The translations under genes and the position numbers were made by a program. 64,000 bases of DNA, from positions 10,376 through 74,375 of the forward strand of contig JAFEFG010000004.1 of NCBI GenBank assembly GCA_018240685.1, in the 5' to 3' direction. This DNA is from Pseudomonadota bacterium. Lineage in GTDB: Bacteria; Pseudomonadota; Alphaproteobacteria; Reyranellales; Reyranellaceae. Positions 6,201 to 63,206 of the stretch are shown one piece after another. Within the stretch, counting starts at the first letter, position 1, and each line of letters starts with the position of its first letter. A model generated the notes under the pieces. That model saw only the letters and a program-made list of their open reading frames with translations. It was not told the DNA's origin and ran no database searches.

Positions 6201-6946
6201 TGACGTTCCAGGCCCTGAGCGCCATGCTCGCCGGCGACTACGCCCTTGCCGAGAGGCGGGCGACGGAGGCCTACGCGGCCGTCACCGATGCGAGCCTGGG
6301 CCCGTATTCCGGCATCTACGGCATGCAGATGTTCGCGATCCGGCGCGACCAGGGCCGGCTCGCCGAGATCGCGCCGCTGGTGAAGCGGTTCGTGAACGAG
6401 AACCCGGACGAGGCGGTGTGGAAGCCGGGCCTGATGCTGATCGCCAGCGATGTCGGGTTCCATGTCCAGGCGCGGCAGCATTTCGAGGACTTCGCCGCGA
6501 CCGGCTTCGCCGTTCCCGAGGACGCCAAGCGCCAGATCACGCTGACCTACTTCGCCGAGGTCTGCGCCGCGCTCGGCGATGCGGCGCGCGCCGAGCGCCT
6601 GCACGAGCTTCTGCTGCCCTACCGGGACGTCACGGTCCTGGCGCCGCCCAACACGCTCTGCAACGGCGCCATGGCCCATTATCTCGGCCTGCTGTCCGCG
6701 ACGATGGCGGACTGGGAGACGGCGGAATCGCATTTCCAGGCCGCGCTCGCGCTCAACGAGCGGCTCGAGGCCTGGCCGCGCCTGGCCTGGACGCAGTTCG
6801 AGTACGCGCGGATGCTATTGGCACGGGGACGGAACGGCGATAGCGTACTCGCAGGTACTCTGCGCAAATCGGCCATGACAGCGGCCGAACGGATGGGCAT
6901 GGGGGCCCTTCTGCAGCGCAGCGCGACACTCGAGGGGCGGGCGTGA
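3248..6946 (+). CDS. SAM domain-class III nucleotide cyclase-STAND (AAA) ATPase-TPR-like protein
   Basis: N-terminal SAM (WLSANGL...LRELGLSLGDRKRLL); cyclase motifs VDLVGST, GDG and NIAARLQ; Walker A GEAGIGKS; Walker B VVEDAHW; helical repeat C-terminus; SD GGAGGG. Confidence 0.9.
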   Translation: MAAADQDAGREAREVTREDLRRWLSANGLGGHAASFAANGIDWDVLVDLTEADLRELGLSLGDRKRLLKAIQALKGQPLKDQAPEGTPPAAPAAGSGMPPPPAPTSAPTQAPIPALGPNLAAERRSITVMFVDLVGSTPMSEQLDPEDMREVLRAFHEGCAEAIGAEDGHIARYMGDGILVYFGYPHAHEDDAVRAVRAGLGIIASLRGTNRTLAVQYGVRLQARIGIHTGLVVVGDVGAGAARDREAIVGETPNIAARLQGEAQPDTVVISAATRRLVEGHFVFEDVGSRALKGVSSLIRIFRVARQAESPDRFDARVDRGLTPLVGRGAELEMLRQRWEQAREGEMRCVLLVGEAGIGKSRLVRACREALAEEPHQAVSWHCSSYHRSSAFYPVIVWLLRSLGINPQQEADLSKLEAAVDSLGIADADVVPTVASLLGLAAEPAEETSGLAFRRRVLDALSATIDAMARRQPLLMVVEDAHWIDPSTLDLLRELQERLTASRLLLLVTARPEFKPGWSYPQLVQVNLDRLSRRERHAMIEQLTAGKALPDFVLDQIVLRTDGVPLFVEELTKTVLEENVWRDAGTHYELEGPFQGIAIPDSLQGSLLARLDRLDPSAKEIAQIGAAIGREFNRDLLHIVARQGDESLEAGLDQLVAAEIVRPVWLPAAGGRSFAFRHALIQDAAYQSLLLARRRQYHAAIARALLSDFPEIAAAQPEVVAQHLTTADQVDPAIDAWLRAAESAMDRGAYAEAQAHVSRGLELIKRLPGEEKGRARRAVPFLLTRGRLEIKETRTQAQVTFHQAATMARACGLVREFAFAAIGMCQVEQFGYSPSPMAKELIREALDNPALDDANLRCRLQCWMGRALFLSGGDVQGCATCVAEARATAERLGDRRCLHDIMATEMMYYPTPVASEFDRTARFVREFSESARLFADPYEAMYSAGITSARFLEIGDIEGFHETLRRIAELARMTQAPGDRWLHLTFQALSAMLAGDYALAERRATEAYAAVTDASLGPYSGIYGMQMFAIRRDQGRLAEIAPLVKRFVNENPDEAVWKPGLMLIASDVGFHVQARQHFEDFAATGFAVPEDAKRQITLTYFAEVCAALGDAARAERLHELLLPYRDVTVLAPPNTLCNGAMAHYLGLLSATMADWETAESHFQAALALNERLEAWPRLAWTQFEYARMLLARGRNGDSVLAGTLRKSAMTAAERMGMGALLQRSATLEGRA
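3553..3588 (+). repeat. Three imperfect 12-bp tandem repeats in the Pro-rich linker of the cyclase
   Basis: ggctccgacttc / ggctccgactca / ggcgccgatccc, encoding APTS-APTQ-APIP. Confidence 0.6.
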
Positions 6947-6964
6947 ACCGCCCGGGAGGGACTC

Positions 6965-7225
6965 ATGCCGCGTTACATGATCGAGAGAAGATTCGCGGAG
7001 CAGGTGGAGGTGTCGAAGACCGACGCCGACAACATCCGGCGGATCAACGACGAGGAAGGCGTCAAGTGGCTGTTCTCCTTCCTCAGCGCCGACAAGCTGA
7101 AGACCTATTGTCTCTATGAGGCGCCGAACGCCGAGGCCATCCGTGCGGCCGCGCGGCGTGCCAACCTCCCGGCCGACATCGTCGTCGAGGTGGGCGGCGA
7201 GCTGCGGCCGGAAATGTTCGCCTGA
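6965..7225 (+). CDS. DUF4242 (SCO4226-like) protein
   Basis: MPRYMIER start, KTYCLYEAPNAEAIRAAARRANLPAD core; SD GGAGGG. Confidence 0.85.
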   Translation: MPRYMIERRFAEQVEVSKTDADNIRRINDEEGVKWLFSFLSADKLKTYCLYEAPNAEAIRAAARRANLPADIVVEVGGELRPEMFA

Positions 7226-14990: not shown

Positions 14991-15605
14991 GTGAGCAAGC
15001 GCGAGAATGCAAAGTTCAAGATCGACCGCCGCCTCAGGGTCAACCTGTGGGGCCGCGCCAAGAGCCCGTTCAACAAGCGTGAATATGGCCCCGGCCAGCA
15101 CGGCCAGGGCCGCCAGAAGCCGACCGACTATCGCCTGCAGTTGATGGCGAAGCAGCGGCTCAAGGGCTACTACGGCTCGGTCTCGGAGCGTCAGCTTCGC
15201 CGCTACTACGCCGAAGCCGTGCGCCGCAAGGGCGACACCGGCGAGAACCTGGTCGAGCTGCTGGAGCGCCGGCTGGACGCGGTCATCTACCGCATGAAGT
15301 TCGCCATCAGCCCGTTCGCCTCGCGCCAGCTCGTGAGCCACGGCCACGTCAAGGTGAACGGCCGGCGCGTCAACATCGCGTCCTATCTCGTGAAGGACAA
15401 CGACGTGATCGAGCTCACGTCCAAGGCCAAGGAGATGGTCCGCGTGATCGAGGCCACGCAGAGCCCCGAGCGCGACGTGCCGGACTACGTCACCGCCGAC
15501 CACACGGAAATGAAGGGCACCTTCGTGCGCGGCCCCAAGCTCGCCGACGTGCCCTATCCGGTGCAGATGGAACCGTCGCTGGTGGTCGAGTACTACAGCC
15601 GCTGA
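14991..15605 (+). CDS. rpsD: 30S ribosomal protein S4
   Basis: [32 protein letters not shown]; GTG start. Confidence 0.97.
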
Positions 15606-15634
15606 TCGGGTTTCCTGCCCGCACTTCGAAAGCG

Positions 15635-15661
15635 AAAGCCCGCCCTTGTGGCGGGCTTTTT
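15635..15661 (+). terminator. Intrinsic terminator after rpsD
   Basis: aaagcccgcc-cttgt-ggcgggcttt followed by a T run. Confidence 0.85.
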
Positions 15662-15696
15662 GCGTTGGGGGCATCCTCACGGACGGAAGAGGGGTC

Positions 15697-16878
15697 ATGA
15701 CAGAAGACATCGGTGCATTCGTTCCCGGACCGCGCGTGCGCATCGAGGGCCGGGCCGGCGGGCCGCTCTCGGGCCTGAGCTTTGCCGCCAAGGACCTGTT
15801 CGACGTGGCCGGCGTGCCGACCGGCGGCGGCAACCACGACTGGCCGACCGGGCGCCCCATCCCGACGCGCCATTCCTGGGCGGTGCAGACATTGCTCGAT
15901 GCCGGCGCGACGCTGATCGGCAAGACCGTCACCGACGAGGTCTCGCTCGGCATCCTGGGCGAGAACGCCTTCGACGGCACGCCGGTGAACGTGCGCGCCC
16001 CCGGCCGCGTGCCGGGCGGTTCGTCGTCCGGATCGGCGGCGGCGGTGGCGGCGGGGCTCTGCGATACCGCGCTCGGCACCGACACCGGCGGCTCGGTGCG
16101 CGTGCCGTCGAGCTTCTGCGGCCTCTACGGCATCCGGCCCACGCACGGGCGCATCGACACCACCGGCATGCTGCCCCAGGCACCGACCTCCGACACGACC
16201 GGCTGGTTCGCCCGCGATGCGGAGACCTTCGCGCGCGTCTCGTCGGTGATGCTGGGCGAGGCGATCCCGACCGCGCTGCCGACGAAGCTGATCGTCGCCG
16301 TCGATGCCTTCGGCTTCGCCGATGCCGATGTCGCCGAGGCGCTGCAGCCGATGGTCCGGCAGCTCGCCGCGCGGATCGGCGAGACGCGCGAGGAGATCAT
16401 GGCGCCGCAGGGCCTGTCGGTATGGGCGCGGGCGCAGCGCAGCCTGCAGCCGGTCGAGGCCTACAACACCTTCAGGGACTGGCTCGACAAGGGCAATCCG
16501 CGCTTCGCCTTCTCGGTCGCCAAGGCGCTGGTCATGGGCTCGCTGACGCCGCAGGCCGACCAGAACTGGGCCGCGCTGATGCGCCAGGAAGTGCGCGGGC
16601 GCCTGCGATACCTGCTGCCGCCCGGCACCATCCTGTGCCTGCCGACGACGCCGTTCCCGGCGCCGCTGCGCGGCCAGCCGCTGTCGGTGCTCGATCCGCT
16701 GCGCGACCGCATCACCTGCCTGTGCGCGCAGGGCGGGCTTGCCGGGCATCCGCAGGTGAACCTGCCGGGCGCGACCGTCGACGGCCTGCCGGTGGGGCTG
16801 TCGATCATCGGGGCGCGCGGCAGCGATGCGACGCTGGTCGCGGTGGCGCGGGCGATGGAGCGGACGGCGCGCGCATGA
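15697..16878 (+). CDS. Amidase signature family enzyme
   Basis: KDLFDVAG, GGSSSGS and DTGGSVR (Ser-cisSer-Lys triad). Confidence 0.9.
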   Translation: MTEDIGAFVPGPRVRIEGRAGGPLSGLSFAAKDLFDVAGVPTGGGNHDWPTGRPIPTRHSWAVQTLLDAGATLIGKTVTDEVSLGILGENAFDGTPVNVRAPGRVPGGSSSGSAAAVAAGLCDTALGTDTGGSVRVPSSFCGLYGIRPTHGRIDTTGMLPQAPTSDTTGWFARDAETFARVSSVMLGEAIPTALPTKLIVAVDAFGFADADVAEALQPMVRQLAARIGETREEIMAPQGLSVWARAQRSLQPVEAYNTFRDWLDKGNPRFAFSVAKALVMGSLTPQADQNWAALMRQEVRGRLRYLLPPGTILCLPTTPFPAPLRGQPLSVLDPLRDRITCLCAQGGLAGHPQVNLPGATVDGLPVGLSIIGARGSDATLVAVARAMERTARA

Positions 16879-58274: not shown

Positions 58275-58700
58275 GTGCCGCGCTCGGACAGAATGGAAGA
58301 TCAGCTTGCCTACCTTATCGCAAGCGTGAACCGGCAGCTCGAGAACGACCTCGAGGAGAAGCTCAAGGAAGAGGGGGTGGCCCTCGAACATTTCCGGATC
58401 CTGAGCGCGCTATCGTCCCAGAGCGGGCTGGCGATGGGTGAACTCGCCCATCGGGTCCTGGTCGATTCGACCACGCTCACCAAGATCATCGACAAGATGA
58501 CGGCCGAGGCGCTGGTCTACCGTGCGCCCGACCCCGGCGACCGCCGCAAGGTGCTGGTTTTCCTCGCCTCCAAGGGGCTGGCGCTGCACAAGAAGCTGAA
58601 GGGCCTGGCGGTCCAGCAGCAGCGCGACATCCTCGGCACGCTCGATGCGGAGGGGGCCGGCAAGCTCGAAGCCATCCTCCGGGCGATGATGCAGGGATAA
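58275..58700 (+). CDS. MarR family regulator
   Basis: TLTKIIDKM, DPGDRRKV wing motif. Alternative start ATG at 58293. Confidence 0.9.
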   Translation: MPRSDRMEDQLAYLIASVNRQLENDLEEKLKEEGVALEHFRILSALSSQSGLAMGELAHRVLVDSTTLTKIIDKMTAEALVYRAPDPGDRRKVLVFLASKGLALHKKLKGLAVQQQRDILGTLDAEGAGKLEAILRAMMQG

Positions 58701-58853
58701 TCTCGCCCCGCTGCCGATTCTTTCCCCGGTGTCGGGCCTGGTCCGAAGGGCCACGACCGTATGCTCGCCCGTCGACATGAAGATTCGCCGTATTACCGGC
58801 TCGGCCTTTGCCGCTGGCGGTGGCATGATCGGCGACGCTGAATTGGAGAACCC

Positions 58854-59573
58854 ATGACCCTCGACCGCGCCGTCATCGATACCTTGTCCGCCGTGTCCAC
58901 GGCGACGCTCACCACGGTCCTGCTGAAGAAGGGGCTGCGCAATGTCTGGATGCGCGGTACGCGGCCACTCAAGCCCGGCCAGCCGCGCCTCGTCGGCCGC
59001 GCCTTCACGCTGCGCTTCGTGCCGGCGCGCGAGGATCTCGCCACGCCCGAATCCTGGTCCTCGCCGCGGTCGACGCGGGCGGCCATCGAGGACATGCCGG
59101 CGGGCTGCATCGCCGTCGCCGATGCAATGGGCGTCACTGATGCCGGCATCTTCGGCGACATCCTGACGGCGCGCATGAAGAAGCGCGGCGTGGCGGGCCT
59201 CGTCACCGACGGCGTCGTGCGCGATCTCGCCGGCGTGCTCGGCACCGGTCTGCCGGTCTGGTGCCAGGGCGGCGCCGCGCCTCCCTCCGTCGCCGGCCTC
59301 ACCTTCGTCGGCTGGCAGGAGCCGATCGGCTGCGGCGGCGTCGCGGTCTTCCCGAACGATGTCGTGGTCGTCGACGACGACGGGGCAGTGCTGATCCCGC
59401 AGGCGCTGCTGGATGACGTGGTTGCGGTCGCGAGCGAGCAGGAGAAGCTCGAAGCCTGGATCATGAGCGAGGTCGAGAGCGGTGCCGCACTGCCCGGCCT
59501 CTATCCGCCGAATGCAGAGAACAAGGCGCGGTACGAAGCCTGGAAAGCGGCCCGCGACAAGGCGGCGGACTGA
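58854..59573 (+). CDS. RraA-like/HMG aldolase family protein
   Basis: GRAFTLRFVP, GIFGDIL, TDGVVRD, PNDVVVVDDDG. Confidence 0.88.
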   Translation: MTLDRAVIDTLSAVSTATLTTVLLKKGLRNVWMRGTRPLKPGQPRLVGRAFTLRFVPAREDLATPESWSSPRSTRAAIEDMPAGCIAVADAMGVTDAGIFGDILTARMKKRGVAGLVTDGVVRDLAGVLGTGLPVWCQGGAAPPSVAGLTFVGWQEPIGCGGVAVFPNDVVVVDDDGAVLIPQALLDDVVAVASEQEKLEAWIMSEVESGAALPGLYPPNAENKARYEAWKAARDKAAD

Positions 59574-59668
59574 AAGCGGCATCGGCGCGTGGGGCGGGCG
59601 AATGCTTCCCGGAAGCCGCCTGTGCCAACGGCTGCGTTCTGCGCAAAATGGATAGCCTGCCGATGACC

Positions 59669-59688
59669 TATACCCTCTAGTGGGTACA
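59669..59688. promoter_or_regulatory. Palindromic operator-like site upstream of plsB
   Basis: tataccctctagtgggtaca, 8 of 10 positions pair. Confidence 0.5.
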
Positions 59689-59781
59689 GGCTGACCGGAC
59701 AGGCGCAGGGCGCCATATGCCCACTTTCGGTTGGCGTGGCTTCATTGGCGGCCGGCATGAGGTGCGGCTCGGCCGGTCTAG

Positions 59782-61596
59782 GTGCCCGCGACGATGTTCA
59801 GGACCCGCAAGGCCGTCGCACGTGAAGTGCTGAACAGCAAGAATTTCGAGGCTGAGCTTTCGATCGTCGCCCGGAAGGCGGGCAAGACGCAGGCCGAGGC
59901 ACGCCGGAAGGCGCTTGGCGATCTCCTGGCGATGGCTTGCATCCAGGTGCCGTTTTTCGGCTTCCTGCTCGACCGAGGGCTGGGGTCGCTTCACACGCGG
60001 GCCTGGTCCTTCGATGTGGATTGGCCGGCCCTGACGCGGCTGCAGAGCGAGCATGCGGGCAAGCCGCTGGTTTTCCTGCCGACGCACCGGTCGTACGCCG
60101 ACGCTTTCATTCTCATGAGGGTCCTTCTGTCGAACCGGATGCCGCCCACTTACGTGCTCGGCGGCGACAATCTCCGGTTCTTCCCGCTTGGCACGATCGG
60201 CCGCCGGGCAGGTATCGTGTTCATCCGGCGCAGCTTCAAGGACGACGAGATCTACAAGCTGGCGCTGCGCAGATACATGCACTACCTCATCGCGTCTGGC
60301 GCCAATCTCGAATGGTACATGGAAGGCGGCCGCTCCAGGACCGGCAAGCTGCGGCCGCCGAAGTACGGCCTCCTCAGATATCTCGTCGATGCGATGGAGG
60401 GCGGTGCCGTTCGCGATATCCTGCTCGTGCCGGTGTCGATCACTTACGACCAGCTGCAGGAAGTCGGGATGATGGTGGCCGAGGAAGCCGGTGCCGCCAA
60501 GGCGAAGGAGGGCGTGGGCTGGCTTGCCGCCTACGTCCAGGCGCAGAGCCGCAAGCTCGGCAAGGCCTATGTGCGTTTCGGAGAGGCCTTCTCGCTGCGC
60601 GAGGCTCGCCCGACCGGCGACGACCAGCTGCCTCGCTGGACGCTCGACAAGATCGCTTTCGAGGTCTTTCAGCGCATCAATCGGGTAACGCCGGTAACGG
60701 CGCCGGCACTCGCCACTCTGGCCCTGCTCAGCGTCCGCGATCATGCGCTCACCTTGCAGGAGGTGCATGACGTGATCGAGCCCTTGCTGGACTACGCCGC
60801 GGCGCGCAACCTGCCGACCTCCGCACTCGGCGCCCTCCACAGCGTGCGCGGCGTCGAGGAGGTTCTCGATACGCTCGTTCGATCGGGTATCGTCGGCCGT
60901 CACGACGGTGGCTTGGAACCAGTCTTTTATATCGAGCCCGGCAAGCATCCGGTCGCCGCATACTACCGCAACAGCGCGATCCACTGGTTCGTCAATCGGG
61001 CGATCGTTGAACTCGGCATCATGGTCGCCGCGCGCGAGGGCGACGGTAACGCGCTGACCCGCGGGCTGGACGCGGCCTTTGCCTGGCGCGACCTGCTGAA
61101 GTTCGAGTTCTTCTTCAGCGAGAAGCCCGTCTTCCAGGAGGAGATCACTGCGGAGGCGCGCCTGCTCGACCCGAACATTCGCGCGCTCGTGTCCGGGCAG
61201 ACGGTGCCGCTGTCCGTCCTCGAGCGGGCGCCGTTCCTCATTGCCCATCGGGTGCTGCCGGCGTTTCTCGAGGCCTACTTCGTCGTTGCCGACCGCCTGG
61301 CGGCGCATCCGGCAGAACTGCCGGTGGAGGAGCGGAAATTCCTCGCGCAGTGCCTCGCGGTCGGCCGGCAGTATGTCCTGCAGAAGCGGTTGAGAAGCCC
61401 GGAATGCGTCAGCCGCGAGCTCTTCACGAACGCCCTTGCGCTGGCGGCCAATCGCGGCCTGCTGCAACCGGGAGCCGGCGATCTTGCGGAAAGGCGGCGT
61501 CAATTCGCTGCCGAAACGGCTGCCGCCGTGGCCGGCGTGGCTGCGATCGGCGACCTCGACTATCGGCTGCGCCACGGCCGGCGGCACCTGCAATGA
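59782..61596 (+). CDS. plsB: Glycerol-3-phosphate acyltransferase (PlsB-type, short form)
   Basis: HRSYAD (HX4D), FIRR, EGGRSRTGK, PVSITYD. Alternative start ATG at 59794. Confidence 0.85.
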   Translation: MPATMFRTRKAVAREVLNSKNFEAELSIVARKAGKTQAEARRKALGDLLAMACIQVPFFGFLLDRGLGSLHTRAWSFDVDWPALTRLQSEHAGKPLVFLPTHRSYADAFILMRVLLSNRMPPTYVLGGDNLRFFPLGTIGRRAGIVFIRRSFKDDEIYKLALRRYMHYLIASGANLEWYMEGGRSRTGKLRPPKYGLLRYLVDAMEGGAVRDILLVPVSITYDQLQEVGMMVAEEAGAAKAKEGVGWLAAYVQAQSRKLGKAYVRFGEAFSLREARPTGDDQLPRWTLDKIAFEVFQRINRVTPVTAPALATLALLSVRDHALTLQEVHDVIEPLLDYAAARNLPTSALGALHSVRGVEEVLDTLVRSGIVGRHDGGLEPVFYIEPGKHPVAAYYRNSAIHWFVNRAIVELGIMVAAREGDGNALTRGLDAAFAWRDLLKFEFFFSEKPVFQEEITAEARLLDPNIRALVSGQTVPLSVLERAPFLIAHRVLPAFLEAYFVVADRLAAHPAELPVEERKFLAQCLAVGRQYVLQKRLRSPECVSRELFTNALALAANRGLLQPGAGDLAERRRQFAAETAAAVAGVAAIGDLDYRLRHGRRHLQ

Positions 61597-63047
61597 CTGC
61601 CGTCGACACCATGGTCGCCGCCATCGAGGCCGGTGCGAGGGGGCCGGCCGTCGGCGCCTTCTTCGACTTCGACGGCACGCTGATCGACGGCTATTCCGCG
61701 GCCGCCTATTTCGGTGACAGATTCCGCCGTCGCGAGATGACCCTCACGGAGGCCATGGATGTCGCGCATCTGGCGTTGCATCCCGACATGGACGAGGCTG
61801 GGTTCGCCGCCGCCATCGGCAGGAGCCTGGCCCCATGGAGCGGACATTCGGAGCAGGAGATCATCGATCTCTGGCTGCGCCTGTTCAGGAGCAAGATCGG
61901 CACCCGGCTCTTTCCCGAGGCGTGGAAGCTTGTGAAAGCCCACCAGCGAATGGGTCATACGGTGGCGATTGCGTCTTCGGCGATGCGGTACCAGGTAGTG
62001 CCCTTCGCGGAGGAACTCGGCATCGGGCATCTGCTGTGCACGCGCGTGGCGGTACGCGATGGCCGGCTGACGGGCGCGATCGAGGGGCCGACGCTGTGGG
62101 GTAATGGCAAGGCCGAAGCGGTTCGTGCCTTCGCGCAGGATCATGATGTCGACCTGTCGCGAAGCCATGGCTACGCGAACGGCAACGAGGACATCGCCTT
62201 CCTCAGGGTCGTGAGGCAGGCGGTTGCCGTGAACCCCAAGCGGATGCTGGCAGCGACCGCACGGCAGGAAGGCTGGAAGGTCCTGCGCTTTGGGAGGCGC
62301 CGCAAGGCCTCGAACTTGGCGGTCGCGCGCAGCGTCGCGGCCTATGGTGCGCTGGCGGCGACGTCGCTTGGGGGAGTGGCCTATGCCGTCGCAACAGGGA
62401 AGAAACGGCGTGCCGCCGAACTGGTCAGCGCGGTGGGCAGCGACGCGATGCTGGCGGTGAGCGGCATCCGCGTTGACCTCCAGGGCGAAGAGCATTTGTG
62501 GGCGCATCGGCCCTCGGTGTTCCTCTTCAATCACCAGAGCAACGTCGATGCCTATGTCCTGCTCAAGCTGTTGAGGCGCGGCATCGTCGCCGTCGCCAAG
62601 AAGGAGGCGGCCCATTTCCCGCTGCTCGGGCAGATCATGCGGGCGCTCGATTTCGCCTTCATCGACCGCGCCAACACGCGCGACGCCATCGAGGCGTTGC
62701 GACCAGCGGTCGATCGGCTCAGGGCCGGACTAAGCGTCGTGATCGCGCCGGAGGGAACACGCAGCTTCACGCCGAGACTGGGACGTTTCAAGAAAGGCGG
62801 CTTCCACATCGCGATGCAGGCCGGCGCGCCCATCGTGCCGGTGGTCCTGCGCAATACCTACGAGGTCATGCCGCGCGACTCGCTGCTGTTCCGACCCGGT
62901 ACGGTGCAGGTGTGTGCGCTGCCTCCAATCGACGTGACGGCATGGAGGGGCGAGGATCTCGACGATCATGTTGCCGACGTGCGGAGCCTCTTCCAGCGTA
63001 CCCTCGACGACTGGCCCCGATCTCGCACCGATCCGGCCCACGACTGA
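61593..63047 (+). CDS. plsC: HAD-IB phosphatase-1-acylglycerol-3-phosphate acyltransferase fusion
   Basis: DFDGTL at the N-terminus; NHQSNVD, FIDR and PEGTRS in the C-terminal half; ATGA overlap with plsB. Confidence 0.85.
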   Translation: MTAVDTMVAAIEAGARGPAVGAFFDFDGTLIDGYSAAAYFGDRFRRREMTLTEAMDVAHLALHPDMDEAGFAAAIGRSLAPWSGHSEQEIIDLWLRLFRSKIGTRLFPEAWKLVKAHQRMGHTVAIASSAMRYQVVPFAEELGIGHLLCTRVAVRDGRLTGAIEGPTLWGNGKAEAVRAFAQDHDVDLSRSHGYANGNEDIAFLRVVRQAVAVNPKRMLAATARQEGWKVLRFGRRRKASNLAVARSVAAYGALAATSLGGVAYAVATGKKRRAAELVSAVGSDAMLAVSGIRVDLQGEEHLWAHRPSVFLFNHQSNVDAYVLLKLLRRGIVAVAKKEAAHFPLLGQIMRALDFAFIDRANTRDAIEALRPAVDRLRAGLSVVIAPEGTRSFTPRLGRFKKGGFHIAMQAGAPIVPVVLRNTYEVMPRDSLLFRPGTVQVCALPPIDVTAWRGEDLDDHVADVRSLFQRTLDDWPRSRTDPAHD

Positions 63048-63112
63048 CGGCGGGCCTCCGATGTGGCGTCGATGGAAACGACGCTGCGCCCTGGACAGGC
63101 CGACAGTGCATG

Positions 63113-63142
63113 AAAAAAGCCGCCCGCGGCCCGGACGGCTTT
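63113..63142. terminator. Terminator-like hairpin
   Basis: aaaaaagccgcccg-cggcc-cggacggcttt with one mismatch; the longer U-tract is on the minus strand. Confidence 0.6.
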
Positions 63143-63206
63143 CTGTCCCAACCGAACTAGACGAAAAGAAACAGTCTGGCAACGGTCGGCGTGCTGCAAT
63201 AGATGA

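Follow-up and report, generated by a model that had tools for sequence, protein, structure and literature searches.

A short PlsB2-type acyltransferase and a HAD-PlsC fusion form a putative portable glycerolipid cassette in an alphaproteobacterium without WS/DGAT

Why does an alphaproteobacterium that has PlsX and PlsY also carry a mycobacterial-style PlsB gene joined to a gene for a HAD-PlsC fusion, and what could the pair do in such a host? The question is raised by a stretch of 64,000 nucleotides of contig JAFEFG010000004.1 (hereafter the window; coordinates are positions in it unless a contig or locus is named), in which both genes lie on the + strand. A preliminary description, made from the letters alone, had read them as a glycerol-3-phosphate acyltransferase (GPAT) and a phosphatase-acyltransferase fusion of mycobacterial affinity in an alphaproteobacterium, coupled through an ATGA overlap, with an intact HAD motif I, an Asn for the usual Asp in motif IV, and no wax ester synthase/diacylglycerol acyltransferase (WS/DGAT) in the window; it had proposed a route through phosphatidic acid and diacylglycerol to triacylglycerol or wax storage, or else the use of exogenous fatty acids. 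The structural readings were borne out by profile, alignment and genome searches. Two features had been missed, namely the truncation of PlsB at its N terminus and the status of the pair as a unit which, judged from sequence comparison, moves horizontally. We lean towards the reading that the pair is an acquired, self-contained cassette that would convert glycerol-3-phosphate (G3P) to phosphatidic acid, which the HAD domain would then dephosphorylate, as an accessory to the PlsX/PlsY/PlsC route of the host.

The PlsB-like open reading frame (59782-61596, +) opens at a GTG immediately 3' of a TAG, and translation most likely begins at the ATG at 59794, for a product of 600 residues that matches the called protein and the closest homologues in length. 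The ATG of the fusion gene (61593) overlaps the TGA of the PlsB-like gene (61594-61596), an arrangement that suggests translational coupling of the two; a longer frame for the fusion, from 61350, was rejected as merely the open frame 5' of that ATG. In the PlsB-like protein Pfam places an Acyltransferase domain at residues 88-216 and a GPAT_C domain (PF19277, E 5e-73) at residues 227-558. Its best curated model is NF002886, the NCBIfam equivalog for actinobacterial PlsB2, which gives 647.8 bits over profile positions 181-773 of 787, while E. coli-type PlsB models give about 210-220 bits. Coverage of the NF002886 profile is partial, and the score stays under the equivalog cut-off (648 against 721 bits) because the protein is without an N-terminal domain; the PlsB of Rhodococcus opacus, read from an upstream ATG, has 752 residues and scores 1102.6 bits over profile positions 11-782.

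What is left is nonetheless an entire enzyme core as far as sequence can tell. The HX4D catalytic motif, the Arg block for G3P binding and the GPAT_C domain are all present, and a published model of M. tuberculosis PlsB2 has two Arg residues of this block (R358 and R360) stabilising G3P. The start of the protein is conserved in 16 proteobacterial homologues. Among the related loci, the frame 5' of the shared PlsB region is short in all proteobacterial members and is 157-200 residues longer in Actinomycetota, Myxococcota and Spirochaetota. We conclude from these comparisons that a discrete N-terminal domain of about 180 residues is absent. A remnant of that domain upstream was considered and rejected, given the gap of 220 bp, the stop codon directly before the frame and the same start in the 16 homologues.

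The second protein, of 484 residues, joins a HAD domain (PF12710, residues 22-205) to a C-terminal Acyltransferase domain (PF01553, residues 293-419, 107 bits). The HAD subfamily IB model TIGR01490 is passed with 142.1 bits against a cut-off of 98.3; TIGR00530, over the PlsC-type half, gives 101.2, marginally under its cut-off of 102.95, and models of phosphoserine and histidinol phosphatases score far under theirs. Pfam matches are limited to the HAD, Hydrolase, HAD_2 and acyltransferase families; there is no lipin-type Pfam match, and the N-LIP/C-LIP (LNS2) architecture is not seen in the fusion. All four HAD catalytic motifs can be recognized, as DFDGT (residues 25-29), SSA, K173 and an acidic motif IV, and D25, D27, T29, K173 and D200 are invariant across 30 homologues of 37-71% identity; conservation of the HAD half falls only a little short of that of the acyltransferase half (67/79%, 62/69% and 42/52% in three examples). 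The PlsC-type half carries the HX4D, FxDR (AFIDR) and EGTR blocks, and its fold is that of PlsC, the two-helix motif at the N terminus included. An AlphaFold model built with 30 homologues has a pLDDT of 89 and a pTM of 0.80, and its best structural matches are the HAD-IB protein 3fvv, the PlsC 5kym (E 1e-24 by sequence) and SerB phosphoserine phosphatases, with TM-scores for 3fvv and 5kym of 0.79-0.85 relative to the target. Two long helices of moderate hydrophobicity modelled between the domains are a probable monotopic membrane anchor like the two-helix motif of PlsC.

The Asn in motif IV is the one irregularity in this set, and the preliminary description had allowed that the HAD domain might be inactive. 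Pairwise alignment to 3fvv sets YANGNED against YSDSVND, so that Asn196 stands where the first Asp is usual. The Asn is widespread: proteobacterial and most actinobacterial homologues, the protein of the Rhodococcus operon included, read Y[AS]NGxED together with D[FLY]DGT in motif I, whereas homologues from Myxococcota, Bacteroidota and Spirochaetota read YTDSxED together with DLD[RQ]T. Since the Asn is shared across the clade, we take it, on this alignment, to be a conserved feature of the clade rather than a sign of local decay. For motif IV, a 2025 study of yeast Pah1 gives the form G(D/N)XXXD, with G529-N530-x3-D534 in Pah1 itself, and reports that N530A abolishes phosphatidate phosphatase activity; the N-x3-D spacing of the fusion equals that of Pah1. 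The parallel with a lipid phosphatase is suggestive, by analogy, and given both the clade-wide Asn and the Asn form of active Pah1, the residue would therefore not be evidence of an inactive HAD domain. Motifs I and IV co-vary by clade, DxDGT going with Asn and DLD(R/Q)T with Asp; the exceptions are loci L036 and L038, which combine Gly with Asp, and L031, which combines Gly with Ser. Such co-variation may be charge compensation in the active site.

We then compared the site with a syntenic congener (genome G029) that does not have the pair. Its AmiC-like, MarR and RraA-like genes are kept at 80% nucleotide identity and its Hsp70-like gene at 85%, and the flanks of the empty site (query 1-2777 and 6359-7201) are only 58 bp apart there. 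The segment present in the window and absent from the congener holds only the two genes, and these 3.5 kb sit between the stop codon of the RraA-like gene (59573) and a terminator-like hairpin (~63117-63141) homologous to the one that follows the RraA-like gene in the congener. We find no target-site duplication, inverted repeat or insertion sequence element at the junctions, where the longest shared word is 8 nt. In the other two carriers of the genus the pair lies in contexts that differ from that of the window and from each other. From this comparison of sequences we judge that the pair is a horizontally acquired cassette inserted at this site. Its third-codon-position GC content (GC3) is 0.82-0.83 against 0.85-0.89 for neighbouring genes, so near to them that composition speaks neither for nor against a recent transfer.

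The 220-bp gap upstream of the PlsB-like gene yielded no sigma-70-like promoter in a promoter scan and no convincing Pho box by eye; terminator-like sites in the scan were at chance level in number. Read-through into the pair from the MarR and RraA-like genes is possible on the layout of the sequence and, as the insertion lies ahead of the resident terminator, the pair may have come under MarR/RraA-like control. Those two upstream genes (58275-59573) are residents of the lineage, kept together with the empty site in G029. The coordinates of the pair, its motifs and the inserted segment are collected in Table 1.

Table 1. Coordinates of the two-gene cassette, its sequence motifs and the inserted segment
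Feature	Position	Strand	Remarks
Segment absent from syntenic congener G029	59577..63157		Insertion with only the two genes
PlsB2-type short-form acyltransferase	59794..61596	+	600 aa; open frame from GTG 59782; PF01553 and PF19277 GPAT_C
HX4D catalytic motif HRSYAD (H98-D103), PlsB-like	60085..60102	+	Equals PlsB2tb H276/D281, offset 178
EGGRSRTG block, residues 177-184 (R180, R182), PlsB-like	60322..60345	+	G3P binding; equals PlsB2tb R358/R360
ATGA start/stop overlap	61593..61596	+	Direct sequence reading; ATG 61593, TGA 61594-61596
HAD-IB phosphatase / PlsC-type acyltransferase fusion	61593..63047	+	484 aa; PF12710, PF01553, TIGR01490
HAD motif I DFDGT, residues 25-29 (D25 nucleophile, D27, T29)	61665..61679	+	Invariant in 30 aligned homologues
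HAD motif III (K173)	62106..62120	+	K173 invariant
HAD motif IV ANGNED, residues 195-200 (N196-x3-D200)	62175..62192	+	Asn clade-wide, D200 invariant
Two long helices, residues 241-268 and 271-289, between domains	62313..62459	+	Model secondary structure, moderate hydrophobicity
NHQSNVD, HX4D of PlsC-type domain	62529..62549	+	H314 invariant, D319 nearly so
APEGTRS block, PlsC-type domain	62745..62765	+	P386, E387, G388, T389, R390 invariant
Hairpin/terminator-like element after the pair	63117..63141		Homologous to terminator 3' of RraA-like gene in G029

Is the pair a unit elsewhere as well? The PlsB-like gene was found at 80 loci in a scan of species-representative genomes. The HAD-PlsC gene lies directly 3' of it in Xanthobacteraceae, Roseiarcus, Rhodospirillales, two Legionella species, Nevskiales, Spongiibacteraceae, a metagenome-assembled genome (MAG) of Burkholderiaceae, Rhodococcus, a Mycobacterium MAG, Solirubrobacterales and Saprospiraceae. 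Gene order and close spacing are repeated in more than 40 related loci, and synteny of the pair extends over Alpha-, Beta- and Gammaproteobacteria, Actinomycetota and Bacteroidota. The 16 short sequences from Proteobacteria make one clade of the PlsB tree (support 100), nested among actinobacterial long forms in a wider clade (support 99) that also holds Solirubrobacteraceae, Rhodococcus and Paraconexibacter. The HAD-PlsC tree repeats these groupings, from which we conclude that the two genes have moved jointly. Within the short clade taxonomy is scrambled, with Legionella among alphaproteobacterial sequences and a Rhodospirillales sequence beside Nevskiaceae, and in Legionella the GC3 of the pair is 0.44-0.47 against 0.27-0.37 for its neighbours. 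These patterns fit acquisition from an actinobacterial-type ancestor, after which the N-terminal domain was lost and the pair spread in Proteobacteria, a scenario whose root and direction we infer.

Across its class the pair is rare; the preliminary description had named commonness in the class as a ground against its reading, and that ground does not apply. A PlsB-family gene occurs in 9 of 401 sampled genomes of the class and in 8 of 400 evenly drawn ones, these eight all being long forms at 34-38% identity, and the short type in none of the 400; HAD-PlsC adjoins plsB in four of these eight, and in two of them (G420 and G047) a WS/DGAT gene lies directly upstream of the long-form pair, as in Rhodococcus. 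Within the genus of the window the pair is found in 3 of 114 species, the other two at 67-68% protein identity.

Several of the related loci deserve a remark of their own. The isolates Legionella bononiensis (L007) and L. quateirensis (L008) carry the cassette at 71-72% identity to that of the window, adjoining a 1240-residue ankyrin-repeat protein and an M90 peptidase; WS/DGAT and BtaA are missing from both genomes. In an uncultured alphaproteobacterial MAG an IS110-family transposase gene (L005:4694-5740, -) lies directly upstream of the pair, the sole mobile-element gene seen beside the cassette. A MAG labelled 'Asaia bogorensis' (L009) has the same match statistics as congener G521 (L130), and the HAD-PlsC protein of the 'Proteobacteria bacterium REYR1' MAG (L032) is identical to that of congener G441 (L117); this suggests that the submitters' taxon labels of the two MAGs are unreliable, G521 and G441 being placed in the genus of the window. 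Likewise, the near-identical PlsB proteins of L036 and L038, from MAGs labelled Myxococcota and Spirochaetaceae, suggest that one of these MAGs was misbinned or mislabelled.

The lipid context of the pair bears most directly on its role. In several loci gpsA lies directly 3' of the pair (for example in Roseiarcus L006, Panacagrimonas L012 and Solirubrobacteraceae L042); gpsA supplies glycerol-3-phosphate. Other genomes have an alpha/beta hydrolase gene upstream and a Hydrolase_4 (monoacylglycerol-lipase-like) gene nearby, and in R. opacus WS/DGAT is directly upstream. Here, a PF03007 profile search found no WS/DGAT in the window or anywhere else in this genome (completeness 97.3%), and tblastn with WS/DGAT proteins from a congener, Roseiarcus and Rhodococcus gave no match in the genome; the controls in Rhodococcus, Roseiarcus and congeners were positive. 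The site of the WS/DGAT locus of a congener is empty in this genome, its flanks lying about 220 bp apart on contig C187 (~15529-15747), and because that empty site is contiguous, the absence is real and not an assembly gap. In that congener (G443, L129) a 3.2-kb segment with WS/DGAT occupies the same place.

WS/DGAT is polymorphic in the genus, with one copy in 16 of the 40 species sampled, and none of these 16 carries the pair. Of the three genus carriers, the two that were tested have no WS/DGAT, and the third, G521, appears from the identical match statistics to be the genome of L009, which has none. Among 24 pair-bearing genomes tested, 17 have WS/DGAT, in 1 to 18 copies; the seven without it (the present genome, congener G441, three MAGs of Alphaproteobacteria and the two Legionella species) come without exception from the subclade of the window and make up 7 of its roughly 10 genomes. 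The host itself has one plsX, two plsY and two further PF01553 genes, and its housekeeping route is therefore intact. One plsY paralogue is at C195:2870-3460 (-), about 7 kb before the start of the window on the same contig, and the other at C77:34486-35004. The genome also encodes the betaine-lipid synthase BtaA, which uses diacylglycerol. A specific link of BtaA with the pair was rejected, BtaA being near-core in the genus (33 of 40) and present in just 2 of the 5 other WS/DGAT-less carriers.

From these observations we propose the following sequence of steps. The short PlsB2-type enzyme and the PlsC-type domain, whose acyltransferase blocks are intact in both proteins, would each add one acyl chain to G3P and so make phosphatidic acid, with acyl-CoA as the probable donor, as for the characterised mycobacterial PlsB2. 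The HAD-IB domain is predicted to be an active Mg-dependent phosphatase that most likely dephosphorylates the lipid just made; conversion of phosphatidic acid to diacylglycerol is favoured, with lysophosphatidic acid to monoacylglycerol as the alternative. The cassette would work beside the housekeeping PlsX/PlsY/PlsC route, and its diacylglycerol would go not to triacylglycerol or wax through WS/DGAT but to another sink, for which BtaA could serve, or to recycling. We stress that the acyl donor, the acylation order, the substrate of the phosphatase and the role in physiology are all put forward from sequence. The preliminary account thus stands in part: what it said of gene identity, coupling and actinobacterial affinity is borne out, and storage in this organism is not supported.

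A number of points weigh against the proposal. The HAD domain is of the capped IB type, phosphoserine-phosphatase-like and not lipin, and the parallel with the Asn of Pah1 would be one of analogy only. In the window the pair is without the gpsA and hydrolase genes that flank it elsewhere, and with WS/DGAT missing and BtaA unlinked a need for de novo diacylglycerol is not evident here. An enzyme without the N-terminal ~180 residues of PlsB2 may differ from it in activity or regulation. Finally, none of the HAD-PlsC fusions has yet been assayed; the role of such fusions 'remains to be elucidated' (PLoS One 2023, PMC10351704), and Rv2483c is listed as unconfirmed.

Of the alternatives, the one that fares best dispenses with the phosphatase step. 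The pair would put exogenous or recycled fatty acids, as acyl-CoA, into phosphatidic acid for membrane phospholipids, and the HAD domain, not acting on that product, would be regulatory, would bind the head-group phosphate or would act on a phosphoester such as phosphatidylglycerol phosphate. Such a bypass would suit the absence of WS/DGAT here and in six other carriers of the subclade, two Legionella isolates among them, as well as the solitary state of the pair in this subclade, where it stands in unrelated contexts without gpsA or lipase genes. From the literature, PlsB-family enzymes can take acyl-CoA and PlsY takes acyl-phosphate derived from acyl-ACP, and the relatives of HAD-IB include the phosphoserine and histidinol phosphatases with their soluble substrates. 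However, the invariance of the HAD catalytic residues and the retention of the fusion in every clade, hosts without WS/DGAT included, speak for a catalytic step linked to the acyltransferase; neutral-lipid genes are the ancestral and commonest surroundings, and the models of phosphoserine and histidinol phosphatases score far under their cut-offs. We consider this account of the HAD domain unlikely, but the use of exogenous fatty acids via acyl-CoA as such, which the preliminary description had also suggested, is possible.

A further alternative follows the plant enzymes GPAT4/6/8. Here the fusion would acylate G3P at sn-2, its HAD domain would release monoacylglycerol, and the PlsB-like enzyme would act on the 2-acyl intermediate. 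The domain order and size are those of the plant phosphatase-domain GPATs, bacterial sn-2 G3P acyltransferases and a 2-acyl-G3P acyltransferase (PlsB2) are known from the literature, and genes for monoacylglycerol-lipase-like hydrolases lie near the pair in several genomes. Yet the Atlas neighbours of the fusion are all bacterial, and a second acyltransferase in the unit better fits a product with two acyl chains, so that we find this reading quite improbable.

Storage of triacylglycerol or wax esters in this bacterium, the function first proposed for the pair, is highly improbable and has been largely refuted in silico. It is the role proposed for the homologous actinobacterial operon, and it agrees with the WS/DGAT genes of 17 of the 24 pair-bearing genomes, several of them adjacent to the pair, and of 16 of the 40 congeners; but neither the profile search nor tblastn with three proteins found WS/DGAT, the empty site on C187 is contiguous, no congener with WS/DGAT carries the pair, and of the three genus carriers the two that were tested are without it, the evidence for the third being indirect. 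The notion that the cassette is recently inserted passenger DNA, not expressed or without a role in its host, is scarcely credible: it would suit a strain- or species-specific insertion with no sigma-70-like promoter in the upstream gap, but both frames are intact with every catalytic residue retained, their GC3 is near that of the neighbours, and the position upstream of a resident terminator makes read-through possible.

Returning to the accessory route from G3P, one may ask what it would mean. In the neutral-lipid synthesis of bacteria no enzyme is firmly assigned to the conversion of phosphatidic acid to diacylglycerol, for which the HAD-PlsC fusion, Rv2483c included, has only been proposed. 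New here is that the unit, as its sequences indicate, crosses classes, has shed the N-terminal domain of PlsB and persists without WS/DGAT in one subclade; from this persistence it would follow that the role of the unit is broader than fat storage. In the open-access papers searched we came upon no account of the short form in Proteobacteria or of its occurrence apart from WS/DGAT. That form is a minimal two-gene version in Gram-negative hosts with PlsX/PlsY/PlsC, cultured Legionella isolates among them, and should lend itself better to study than the systems of actinobacteria, which are redundant; for the present genome a triacylglycerol or wax phenotype is not to be expected. Tentatively, and with some doubt of our own, we go further and suggest that the pair might be a portable, self-sufficient module from G3P to diacylglycerol or monoacylglycerol, in which the fusion would be both the bacterial counterpart of the plant phosphatase-GPATs and the long-sought HAD-type phosphatidate phosphatase, and that in hosts without WS/DGAT, such as this Reyranella and the two Legionella species, it might make precursors for a non-storage use, for example phosphorus-free membrane lipids.

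The surroundings add little to the argument but fix the host. Upstream on the + strand are the MarR gene (58275-58700) and the RraA-like gene (58854-59573), and downstream is the Hsp70-like gene (+), which starts at ~63236; the contig continues for 575 bp past the end of the window. The flanking RraA-like protein shares 97% identity with one that bears the label 'Enhydrobacter aerosaccus', and the host is a soil alphaproteobacterium of the Reyranella/Enhydrobacter group. Matches of the stretch at the DNA level come only from sludge, soil and freshwater metagenomes, with word shares that are mostly small.

How does the pair compare with known systems? Its nearest published counterparts are the operon of Rhodococcus jostii RHA1, where atf9-plsB-plsC are transcribed as one unit, and Rv2484c-Rv2483c-Rv2482c of M. 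tuberculosis; the Rhodococcus fusion is the proposed phosphatidate phosphatase of a Kennedy pathway with a housekeeping role, and Rv2483c is its counterpart in M. tuberculosis. As in both, a PlsB2-type acyltransferase gene stands beside one for a HAD-PlsC fusion, adjacent and co-oriented; the Rhodococcus fusion shares the Asn of motif IV (YSNGAED), and the window proteins fall in a well-supported clade with the actinobacterial sequences of the Rhodococcus operon type. Identity to the Rhodococcus and M. tuberculosis counterparts is about 44%, and PlsB has 600 residues here against 752 in R. opacus and 789 in Rv2482c. Unlike those systems, this genome has no WS/DGAT beside the pair, in an operon or elsewhere, and its PlsX/PlsY host has the pair as an accessory insertion; in Rhodococcus the pair includes the sole plsB. 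With mycobacterial PlsB2 (Rv2482c and that of M. smegmatis) the PlsB-like protein shares the HX4D motif and the G3P-binding Arg residues at matching positions. The mycobacterial enzyme acylates sn-1 of G3P and of 2-acyl-lysophosphatidic acid and was characterised with acyl-CoA donors, activities that are known only for mycobacterial enzymes.

A marine-sediment study (PLoS One 2023, PMC10351704) described fusions of an acylglycerol-phosphate acyltransferase with HAD beside WS/DGAT in Actinomycetota and in Alpha- and Gammaproteobacteria. The fusion of the window has the same combination of PF12710 and PF01553, and its occurrence in Alphaproteobacteria was already noted there; the clusters of that study were found by, and contain, WS/DGAT, whereas the subclade of the window is mostly without it. 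For the halves of the fusion the closest solved structures are 5KYM (PlsC of Thermotoga maritima) and 3FVV (a HAD-IB protein of Bordetella pertussis), both single-domain, unlike the fusion; 3FVV is uncharacterised and has the usual Asp in motif IV. With lipin/Pah1 the fusion shares the DxDxT form of motif I, a motif IV of a small residue followed by N-x3-D and the proposed conversion of phosphatidic acid to diacylglycerol, but lipin/Pah1 has N-LIP/C-LIP and the fusion a capped HAD-IB domain, so that the likeness would be one of functional analogy and not of membership. The land-plant enzymes GPAT4/6/8 and RAM2 have a HAD-type phosphatase N-terminal to a PlsC-type acyltransferase and are bifunctional, acylating and then dephosphorylating; they act alone at sn-2 and yield monoacylglycerol for cutin, suberin and symbiosis. 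The fusion resembles them in domain order (HAD first, PlsC-type second) and size, taking the plant architecture from publications, while its look-alikes in the Atlas are all bacterial HAD/acyltransferase fusions, mostly from Actinomycetota.

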